From: an uncultured Gammaproteobacteria bacterium
GTDB lineage: Bacteria; Patescibacteriota; Microgenomatia; UBA8517
NCBI GenBank assembly: GCA_964608405.1
Contig: CAZSNC010000001.1
Coordinates: 18,667-82,666, forward strand
Length of the DNA: 64,000 nt
Direction: 5' to 3'
Shown here piece by piece: positions 31,248-32,237 of this stretch (its first letter is position 1; each line of letters begins with the position of its first letter). The notes under the pieces were generated by a model, which saw nothing but the letters and a program-made list of their open reading frames with translations, made no database searches and had not been told where the DNA came from. Position numbers and translations under genes: made by a program.

Positions 31248-31396
31248 GTTATATTTTTCTTCCAACAAAAAAGGCGCCGGTGGGGCGCCATATCATACAC
31301 CCTCTCATCCAGCTTCACTTACTGCGAATCAATCTGACGAACTTCTCCACAGCAAGGGCTATTGTAGCAAATGATCAAAGCTAACGCAACCATTTA

Positions 31397-31425
31397 TTGA
31401 CATGATAAACGAAAGATATTATAAT
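31397..31425 (+). promoter_or_regulatory. perfect-consensus sigma70-type promoter TTGACA-17-TATAAT on the plus strand (antisense to the surrounding operon)
   Basis: TTGACA at 31397-31402, 17-nt spacer, TATAAT at 31420-31425, inside the 430-bp spacer between tlyA-like and rplC. The predicted TSS at about 31432-31435 coincides with an ATG (31435) opening a 78-codon frame (MAIPGKEGSD...). Confidence 0.4.
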
Positions 31426-31697
31426 CGAGTGAACATGGCTATCCCCGGGAAGGAGGGTTCTGATTCACCGCAACTTAATAGCGAGACAAATCATAGTTCC
31501 AATCCTTCAACCTCTTGTAATAATTACGAATTGAGGCAAATATTTCCAGGATTTTATAGACTTATTGACCATACTAAACATCCCATTTTAACGGGTAAGC
31601 CGGGAAAATATTGTGAAAGATATGTAATTACTGTTGATGGACATATTAAAAAAAAGGACCCCCCGGATTAAAAAATAGAACATCTTAAATTTACCCA

Positions 31698-32237
31698 TCA
31701 GCTTATTAAGGCCAAATACTCGCGATTTCTCCCTTTTCCTCCTAATATTGGCGATTTAACAAGCTTTTCAATTTTTCCTCCTACCTGTTTTATATCTTTT
31801 TCTACTTCTTTTAATACTTGTTCAACTTCCTCATTTGTTAATTTTCCTTTCCCGACTTCGTAATGAGGTTTGATTAAAGAAATTACTCTTCCTCCATCTT
31901 TTAAATTCTTAAAAACATTGGGTAATACGTTCTTTTGTTTAGTCCAAGAGGTGTCAACTGTAATAATATCCACTTTTTCCGGCAACACCACATGCATGGC
32001 ATTAGTTCTCTCCATTACAACAACCCTGTGGTCATTGCGCAATGTCCATGATAGTTCTCCATAAGCCGTGTCAACCGAATAAACTTTCTTCGCTCCGTTT
32101 TGCAGTAAACAATCAACAAATCCCCCCGTTGAACTCCCAAAATCGGCAATTGTTAAATCTTTTACAGAAATACTGAATTGATCTAAAGCAAATTGAAGTT
32201 TTTCACCGGCACGGGAGACAAAATTTGCCATATGCAA
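31698..32237 (-). CDS. tlyA: TlyA-like rRNA 2'-O-methyltransferase (FtsJ fold) lacking the N-terminal S4 domain
   Basis: 179 aa; VSRAGEKLQFALDQF...DFGSSTGGFVDCLLQNGAKKVYSVDTAYGELSWTLRNDHRVVVMERTNA matches the TlyA catalytic domain (SAM-binding GxSTGG). Located between rpsJ and rplC. Confidence 0.8.
   Translation of the reverse strand: MHMANFVSRAGEKLQFALDQFSISVKDLTIADFGSSTGGFVDCLLQNGAKKVYSVDTAYGELSWTLRNDHRVVVMERTNAMHVVLPEKVDIITVDTSWTKQKNVLPNVFKNLKDGGRVISLIKPHYEVGKGKLTNEEVEQVLKEVEKDIKQVGGKIEKLVKSPILGGKGRNREYLALIS

Follow-up and report, generated by a model that had tools for sequence, protein, structure and literature searches.

A TlyA-type methyltransferase gene without an S4 domain beside rpsJ, and a candidate rplC leader, in a Woesebacteria-related genome

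The stretch of DNA analysed here, 64,000 nucleotides (nt) of contig CAZSNC010000001.1 in assembly GCA_964608405.1 and referred to below as the window, carries a methyltransferase gene and a spacer between the ribosomal protein genes rpsJ and rplC. Its closest named genomes are those of Candidatus Woesebacteria (Patescibacteria, or candidate phyla radiation, CPR). The combined results make it likely that a TlyA-type gene lacking the S4 domain stands beside rpsJ at a pre-existing operon boundary, and that rplC begins a unit with its own promoter, leader and attenuator. A single insertion of the methyltransferase gene probably took place in the ancestor of one Woesebacteria subclade, at a site that would already have been an operon boundary in the lineage. 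The rpsJ gene would be carried on the tuf transcript, and the methyltransferase, co-transcribed and probably translationally coupled with rpsJ, would follow the level of tuf and rpsJ and not that of rplC. In turn, rplC-rplD-rplW-rplB and the following genes would form a unit of their own, comprising a sigma-70-like promoter, a leader of about 95 nt and a GC hairpin with a U-run before rplC. The findings overturn no current models; they extend known themes into a poorly studied lineage. The layout of the locus is as follows.

32605-33807, minus strand: tuf, from the list of open reading frames (ORFs)
32241-32549, minus strand: rpsJ, ribosomal protein S10 of 102 amino acids (aa; Pfam Ribosomal_S10, E 4.6e-33), 55 nt after the tuf stop codon
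31698-32231, minus strand: stand-alone TlyA-type catalytic domain without the S4 domain, 177 aa, a predicted S-adenosylmethionine (SAM)-dependent RNA ribose 2'-O-methyltransferase (Pfam, NCBIfam, PDB, AlphaFold/Foldseek)
31248-31697: spacer of 450 nt between rplC and the methyltransferase gene
30408-31247, minus strand: rplC (Pfam Ribosomal_L3), with the ATG at 31247 picked by alignment to relatives

The gene order of the canonical str-S10-spc string of ribosomal proteins is kept throughout. An initial annotation, made from the window alone, had placed a TlyA-like methyltransferase directly after rpsJ and a spacer before rplC. This layout is confirmed, since it is identical in six independent Logan assemblies from six different sequencing runs, with a mean column identity of 98% in the spacer. 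The agreement of these assemblies and of more than 25 related loci with the same layout rules out misassembly, which had been considered as the source of the arrangement. Some details required correction. The protein was given as 179 aa, which is the length of the ORF read from a TTG (31698-32237), but homologues and gene callers support the ATG at 32231, 9 nt past the rpsJ stop codon, and the resulting 177-aa protein opens with MANFVSRAGEKL. In the same way, rplC most likely starts at the ATG at 31247 and not at the TTG at 31268, because MLNAIIGLKQKM matches the L3 N-termini of relatives; therefore, the spacer is 450 nt long, not 430. The description of this spacer as non-coding holds insofar as no conserved protein is encoded in it, but the ~125-140 nt next to rplC form a conserved promoter and leader, and an orphan antisense ORF lies in the rest.

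A catalytic domain of the TlyA type

TlyA is the textbook example of an rRNA methyltransferase whose docking on the 50S subunit depends on an S4 domain, and it also shapes sensitivity to capreomycin-type drugs. The assignment of the 177-aa protein to this family is based on sequence and fold comparisons. The Pfam FtsJ family (PF01728) matches residues 6-141 (E 3e-25, 89.6 bits against a gathering threshold of 24.1), and the NCBIfam matches are to TlyA models only, with no RlmE model among them. TIGR00478 (E 3.7e-41) is aligned over model positions 54-225 of 228, and both TlyA models, TIGR00478 and NF049952, first align at model position 54-56. Because the TIGR00478 alignment begins at position 54, the first ~55 residues, corresponding to the S4 domain, are absent, and no S4 exon is possible upstream, as the gene begins just 9 nt past the rpsJ stop codon. 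The sequence matches in the PDB all belong to the TlyA family (3opn, 3hp7, 5ks2 and 7s0s, E 1e-26 to 1e-39). The AlphaFold model has a mean predicted local distance difference test score (pLDDT) of 91.4, and its top six Foldseek matches in the PDB (3opn, 3hp7, 5kyg, 5ks2, 5eov and 7s0s_B; TM-score 0.87-0.90, E 1e-14 to 1e-18) are likewise all TlyA-family structures. The next match is about six orders of magnitude weaker in E-value, and no RlmE structure was found among the top fold matches. The class I fold and the K-D-K-E tetrad are common to the window protein and to RlmE/FtsJ-type enzymes (PF01728), but its sequence and fold matches are specifically to TlyA. The earlier claims that the protein is TlyA-like, as opposed to a generic FtsJ-like methyltransferase, and that it has no S4 domain were thus both borne out.

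The protein shares the catalytic-domain fold, the K-D-K-E tetrad and the GxSxG motif with TlyA of Mycobacterium tuberculosis (Mtb; Rv1694) and Bacillus subtilis (YqxC), with an identity of 44-49% to canonical representatives and 35-38% to solved structures, whereas the N-terminal S4 domain is present in TlyA and absent here. Among 20 homologues, the catalytic residues K11, D93, K121 and E171 are invariant, along with the SAM motif DFGSSTGGF, in which GxSxG corresponds to G32-S34-G36, and with R7, Y57, R75 and W96. The tetrad aligns with Mtb K69, D154, K182 and E238, the last of which was placed through the 3opn alignment with a 1-residue gap; the S4-less protein has a one-residue insertion before the catalytic Glu compared with canonical TlyA. 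R7, Y57, R75 and W96 align with Mtb R65, Y115, R133 and F157, W96 being another aromatic residue in the place of F157, and K128 is the equivalent of Mtb K189. In TlyA, the catalytic-domain residues that serve the binding of helix 69 and the flipped cytidine are R65, Y115, R133, R137, F157 and K189, and among them R65, Y115 and F157 of the Mtb enzyme are essential for helix 69 recognition and modification and for base flipping (PMC9168844). The equivalents of R65 and Y115, which contact helix 69 in TlyA, and an aromatic residue at the position of F157 are therefore kept in the window protein. Its first residues, M-A-N-F-V, align with the (R)AWV of Mtb, so that the protein starts at the TlyA inter-domain linker and retains the aromatic-Val pair but not the Arg. 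This linker (RAWV in Mtb TlyA) is required for SAM binding (PMC9168844); the B. subtilis enzyme is reported not to require the linker tetrapeptide (PMC12805891).

The distribution of the short architecture was determined in genomes and in sequence clusters. One genome per GTDB species was scanned and the best 80 loci were analysed, which come from Woesebacteria, Uhrbacteria, Yanofskybacteria, Saccharibacteria, WWE3, Dojkabacteria, Gracilibacteria, Amesbacteria and Planctomycetota/Phycisphaerae. The ORF opens 0-3 residues before FVSRAGEKL in all 80 of these loci, and a stop codon lies closely upstream in most of them. Relatives numbered 7522 when 1.84 billion cluster representatives were searched exhaustively. 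Within the top 150, the N-terminus is short in 63, S4-sized in 52 and extended in other ways in 12; the best ranks are filled by short forms, and canonical TlyA appears at ~44-49% identity. Judged from these sequences, the S4-less architecture is an ancestral trait of a large, separate TlyA-like subfamily and not an event at the locus. The idea of a local S4 loss is therefore abandoned, as the short form is found in every one of the best 80 genome relatives, across Patescibacteria and Planctomycetota. A literature search found no description of a TlyA subfamily without the S4 domain, and no link between TlyA and Patescibacteria or Planctomycetes. Long N-terminal extensions that are not S4-sized were observed in some close relatives, P0122 (416 aa), P0124 (360 aa), P0261 (345 aa) and P0265 (482 aa), which may be fusions to other domains; P0122 matches in two stretches.

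A separately encoded S4 partner, a search for which the initial annotation had proposed, was sought with a hidden Markov model built from 52 canonical TlyA N-terminal domains and run against every ORF of 35 aa or more from the window and from 168 related loci (designated L). No partner ORF lies next to the gene in the 168 loci, the model having matched only rpsD (window positions 18022-18627) and one ORF of L058. Moreover, no S4 signal was detected in a 101-aa ORF located between rpsJ and the methyltransferase gene in L007. The L058 ORF (5812-6429, plus strand) matches the profile of the TlyA N-terminal (S4) domain with E 1.6e-8, is found ~1.3 kb downstream of an S4-less methyltransferase gene on a contig labelled Saccharibacteria, and may be rpsD or another S4-domain protein.

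The enzyme would transfer a methyl group from SAM to the 2'-OH of an rRNA ribose. Its likeliest targets would be those of TlyA, namely 16S C1409 (helix 44) and/or 23S C1920 (helix 69), recognised through the surface of the catalytic domain alone. No rRNA gene was found in the window. Normal ribosome assembly requires TlyA in B. subtilis (PMC12805891), and a link of the S4-less enzyme to ribosome biogenesis is reasonable. Several points make the assignment of these targets uncertain. For methylation of the 50S subunit, Mtb TlyA cannot do without Arg6 and Arg20 of its S4 domain, but the R6A and R20A variants retain part of the 30S activity (PMC9168844). Since the S4 residues are essential for the 50S site, the S4-less enzyme may not act on helix 69 at all, and since they are less needed for the 30S site, its preferred target may be helix 44, a new site or an intermediate of assembly. 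The position of Mtb R137 is taken by a nearly invariant Met in S4-less homologues, and the loop after the catalytic Asp systematically reads SWTKQ, as compared with SFISL in canonical TlyA. The protein also misses the curated NCBIfam cut-offs (140.9 vs 185.8 bits for TIGR00478 and 108.7 vs 250 for NF049952), which is consistent with the absent S4 domain.

A substrate other than that of canonical TlyA, such as another rRNA ribose, an assembly intermediate, a tRNA or 30S helix 44 only, is a less likely but serious alternative. The partial 30S activity of the R6A and R20A variants (PMC9168844), the invariant SWTKQ motif peculiar to the subfamily, the Met in place of R137 and the lack of an S4-like partner ORF near the gene in the 168 loci all agree with it, but the residues that contact helix 69 or replace the flipped base (R65, Y115, and F157 as Trp) are kept, and the identity to canonical catalytic domains reaches 44-49%. 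The same sub-threshold scores, together with the absence of an essential domain, could also be expected of a pseudogene, a truncated and decaying tlyA whose S4 exon was lost in a rearrangement. This is highly improbable, as at least 80 species-level genomes from two phyla encode homologues of ~180 aa that share its start, their identity is 50-88% with invariant catalytic and SAM residues, the structural model is confident (pLDDT 91) and the reading frame is intact in six strains. This widespread natural family, built from the catalytic domain only, offers a test of what that domain recognises alone, and it may show at which rRNA riboses CPR bacteria and Planctomycetota carry modifications.

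The boundary between rpsJ and rplC

Synteny in the genome set was analysed by tblastn with the Tuf, S10, L3 and L4 proteins of the window. The order rpsJ-methyltransferase-rplC was found in 17 of the best 80 loci, all from close Woesebacteria relatives, and two further loci on incomplete contigs show one flank only. The methyltransferase gene is located elsewhere, in unrelated contexts, in the Woesebacteria loci L017-L019, L022, L023, L027 and L028 and in all other phyla. The synteny comparison suggested by the initial annotation, which had asked whether the order is general in CPR genomes, therefore gave a negative answer: the order is confined to one Woesebacteria subclade, and elsewhere in Patescibacteria and Planctomycetota the contexts are unrelated. 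In a neighbour-joining tree (no support values), the syntenic copies fall into one grade, within which a single non-syntenic clade is nested, a sequence-based pattern that fits one insertion followed by one relocation.

An unbiased metagenome set was composed of 80 loci anchored on S10 at 79-96% identity. The methyltransferase gene is present in 8 of the 60 informative loci, the other 52 having rplC downstream without it, and the remaining 20 loci were too short. In the 52 loci without the methyltransferase gene, the gap between rpsJ and rplC is at least 130 nt and up to 3.2 kb. In Escherichia coli, the distance between these two genes is a few tens of nucleotides. Where the gene is present, it is separated from rpsJ by 0 to 1.7 kb (10 nt or less in 10 of 26 loci) and from rplC by ~0.1 to 1.3 kb. 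The spacing of tuf and rpsJ in the lineage is 9-78 nt. Thus, in contrast to the canonical str-S10-spc string (tuf-rpsJ-rplC-rplD-rplW-rplB), rpsJ and rplC are never adjacent in this lineage. The genes found between them in relatives (L007-L168), on either strand, encode NUDIX hydrolases, a metallophosphoesterase, GT87-like membrane proteins, a GNAT acetyltransferase, a 23S_rRNA_IVP four-helix protein and many orphans. The closest relatives differ from one another in their extra ORFs, with the GNAT acetyltransferase in L009, the 23S_rRNA_IVP protein in L011 and a protein of unknown type in L161. These sequence comparisons mark the junction of rpsJ and rplC as an insertion hotspot. The "most conserved gene string in bacteria" would accordingly be transcriptionally split in Woesebacteria between rpsJ and rplC, with the split site behaving as a landing pad for new genes.

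The upstream side of rpsJ carries one further element.

32573-32587, minus strand: terminator-like hairpin GCCCCGTAATGGGGC followed by T8 in the tuf-rpsJ spacer, 23 nt upstream of the rpsJ ATG

This hairpin and its T8 run are present in the closest relatives only (L009, L011, L012, L013, L089, L090, L092 and L097). Because there is no room for a promoter after it, rpsJ would have to be read through from upstream. Only four strong sites of the hairpin and T-run type were detected on the minus strand of the window, at 32573-32587, 31273-31289, 19845-19866 and 3769-3789. A conserved motif, GCACCTTAA (variants GCACATT and GCTCTTTAA; 32556-32564, minus strand, in the window), precedes the rpsJ start by 6-14 nt in nearly every Woesebacteria-like locus (tuf-rpsJ spacers of L007-L123); it resembles the 3' tail of 16S rRNA and not a Shine-Dalgarno site.

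The rplC promoter and leader

Three elements were distinguished in the part of the spacer that adjoins rplC.

31361-31389, minus strand: candidate sigma-70-type rplC promoter, read from the sequence, with -35 TTGCGT (31384-31389), a 17-nt spacer and -10 TACAAT (31361-31366)
31248-31359, minus strand: conserved rplC leader of ~95-110 nt with a 5' motif, a putative first hairpin and a terminator-like hairpin (covariance model, blastn)
31267-31289, minus strand: GC hairpin GGCGCC-CCACC-GGCGCC (31273-31289) with a T6 run (31267-31272), ending 19 nt before the rplC ATG

The promoter, the motif and the hairpins occur in that order upstream of rplC in nearly every locus. The promoter of relatives has the form cTTGCa-17-TTTGATATAAT and lies at an equal distance from rplC. 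The 5' motif of the leader reads GTGGAGAAG in the window and [A/G]TGGAGGTG[G/A]T in relatives, about 10 nt past the -10 box. The 3' strand of the first hairpin is CCACG, AACCAC, ATCACC or ACCTC across loci, and its loop often contains AGTTCGTC. A GGA(A/T)GTGCC box, conserved in sequence, separates the first hairpin from the GC hairpin. The latter has the form of an intrinsic terminator in the window (a 6-bp all-GC stem, a 5-nt loop and T6), and across loci it is of the GGCGCC or GGTGCC type, followed by a T-run and, 10-40 nt on, by the rplC ATG; the mean energy of the terminator hairpin is -10.8 kcal/mol (51 leaders). Conservation with other species in blastn is limited to spacer positions 324-435.

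A covariance model (R1) was built from 13 leaders. It matches the window at 31264-31359 (29.7 bits, E 6e-4) and, directly in front of rplC, 65 of 76 loci, regardless of whether the methyltransferase gene is present; these matches end a median of 16 nt before rplC. No match at E <=0.01 was obtained elsewhere, including ~55 methyltransferase loci without rplC. Most of the 11 loci that were missed represent a divergent subclass with the same architecture by eye; the leader is masked by Ns in L020 and is a longer variant in L021. With the leaders aligned by fitting to the model, pairing in the terminator helix reaches 99%, and 4 of its 6 base pairs carry compensatory substitutions. An antiterminator pairing of the GGA(A/U)GUGCC box with a terminator arm, considered by eye, is conjectural, as the box does not covary with the arms.

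The leader would act as a transcription attenuator that sets the output of the rplC operon, and the likeliest mechanism, by analogy with L4 in E. coli, would be feedback by a ribosomal protein of this operon. The E. coli S10 leader resembles it in that a structured 5' leader with a terminator hairpin shortly precedes the first gene of the L3/L4/L23/L2 operon, and the same promoter-then-attenuator logic is found in both (PMC3616713). However, the element described here precedes rplC and leaves rpsJ outside the unit, whereas the E. coli leader is upstream of rpsJ (PMC3616713), and it is ~95 nt long with two hairpins, compared with ~170 nt and five hairpins. There is no sequence or Rfam similarity between the two, and whether Rfam 15 has an S10-leader model was not established; the E. 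coli S10 leader RNA is restricted to Gammaproteobacteria (PMC3616713). Rfam gave no relevant match in the window or in six canonical leaders of relatives (E up to 1-10). The rplC leader is thus a candidate new ribosomal-protein regulatory RNA without an Rfam 15 match, and a literature search found no such ribosomal-protein regulators for this group.

The 5' part of the leader has a further regularity. From its conserved [A/G]TG, an in-frame stop codon is reached after 6-18 codons in all 51 distinct leaders (median 9, exactly 7 in many), whereas the other two frames run for 0 to 24 codons or stay open, with no such regularity. The resulting mini-ORF encodes VEKFVRLIRSK in the window (31318-31350, minus strand) and peptides such as M/V-E-V-V-x-x-x in relatives; it starts ~2-6 nt from the predicted transcription start site and ends at the foot of the first hairpin. 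In most relatives, the 5' end of the leader is a near-perfect Shine-Dalgarno sequence (GGAGGUGAU/GGU; GGAGGTG(A/G)T), which also opens a mini-ORF of 6-13 codons. Such sites are rare in the genome, as only ~3 of 62 predicted minus-strand starts in the window have a GGAGG- or AGGAG-type site, the upstream regions being A/T-rich. The mini-ORF may encode a leader peptide, or its regularity may simply follow from a fixed length of the hairpin loop.

The evidence for an independent, attenuated rplC unit is not uniform, and the following results count against it. The good pair statistics stem from the model-fitted alignment. In an unbiased MAFFT alignment, the first hairpin appears in two registers, 79% and 65% paired, which is not above shuffled sequences. 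MAFFT followed by RNAalifold on 16 and 45 leaders recovered the terminator only in one run and no consensus structure in the other, a shortfall explained by misalignment of the 5' arm of the terminator. The 5' half of the leader is not more stable than shuffled sequences (mean z -0.36). The hairpin could simply terminate transcripts arriving from upstream. On this explanation, the hairpin and U-run would be a mere terminator of the tuf-rpsJ(-methyltransferase) unit and the leader before it would have no regulatory role, which agrees with the canonical intrinsic-terminator shape and with the weak covariation outside the terminator helix. We consider it rather doubtful, because the conserved -35 and -10 boxes lie upstream of the hairpin at a fixed distance, so that transcripts must cross it. 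Moreover, in compact loci the -35 box begins right after the rpsJ stop codon, which leaves no other position for a promoter, and sequence conservation extends to the 5' motif and the GGA(A/U)GUGCC box. Action of the leader through the translated mini-ORF, that is, ribosome-mediated attenuation in place of a ribosomal-protein repressor, is unlikely as well. The regular in-frame stop in all 51 leaders and the position of the start close to the predicted transcription start site, in a genome nearly without Shine-Dalgarno use, argue for translation, but in 32 of the 51 leaders the start codon is GTG, the peptide shows little conservation, the stop codon is displaced by a 1-nt indel between L012 and L013, and a fixed hairpin-loop length would yield the same pattern. 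A broader proposal would make the leader a new class of attenuator that senses translation capacity, with free 30S binding or translation of the mini-ORF deciding on terminator formation, and the S4-less TlyA-like enzymes a distinct class of rRNA 2'-O-methyltransferases with their own substrate recognition. Taken as a whole, this combination is distinctly unlikely; if true, a translation-sensing leader would set the synthesis of L3, L4, L23, L2 and the following proteins.

The same evidence bears on the proposal of the initial annotation that the methyltransferase gene is embedded in a single rpsJ-tlyA-rplC transcript of the S10 operon and co-regulated with all its ribosomal proteins. It is plausible that the gene is co-expressed with translation genes, given that it lies 9 nt from rpsJ and rpsJ 55 nt from tuf. 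The single operon is not supported and we judge it improbable, although all the genes have the same strand and order. The conserved promoter, leader and terminator-like hairpin precede rplC with or without the methyltransferase gene, the junction is split by at least 130 nt in relatives that lack this gene, and the gaps around it vary from 0 to 1.7 kb, with unrelated, often antisense ORFs in between. A point in favour of the single operon, and against the separation of rplC proposed here, is that the hairpin and T-run scan revealed no strong terminator-like site directly after the methyltransferase stop codon; for this reason, some read-through into the leader, and as far as rplC, is possible.

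The remaining spacer and the L3 and L4 tails

The part of the spacer that adjoins the methyltransferase gene differs from the leader in being restricted to the species.

31396-31697, no strand: species-specific part of the spacer, ~300 nt, without similarity to the loci of other species
31435-31671, plus strand: orphan antisense ORF of 78 aa, or 89 aa if read from 31402 (ORF list)
31397-31425, plus strand: perfect TTGACA-17-TATAAT promoter ahead of the antisense ORF, read from the sequence

Neither blastn nor tblastx of this part revealed similarity to a locus of any other species. The antisense ORF was considered as a conserved gene and rejected, being unlike the L007 ORF at the same position and having no tblastn or tblastx match outside the species; the only sequences of its protein among 5.8 billion are the species' own, and it has no Pfam or NCBIfam match. 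The -10 box of the antisense promoter is TAGAAT in five other strains. This remainder of the spacer would thus be fast-turnover DNA with an orphan antisense ORF. Two divergent promoter-like sites, the -35 box of rplC on the minus strand and the promoter of the antisense ORF on the plus strand, stand back to back, 7 bp apart (31384-31425).

Among the products of the proposed rplC unit, L3 has a highly acidic, Glu/Lys-rich C-terminal tail of ~70 residues (3' end of rplC, 30408-30620) and L4 a Lys-rich C-terminal tail of ~50 residues (3' end of rplD, 29664-29800), and both proteins exceed the usual length of bacterial L3 and L4.

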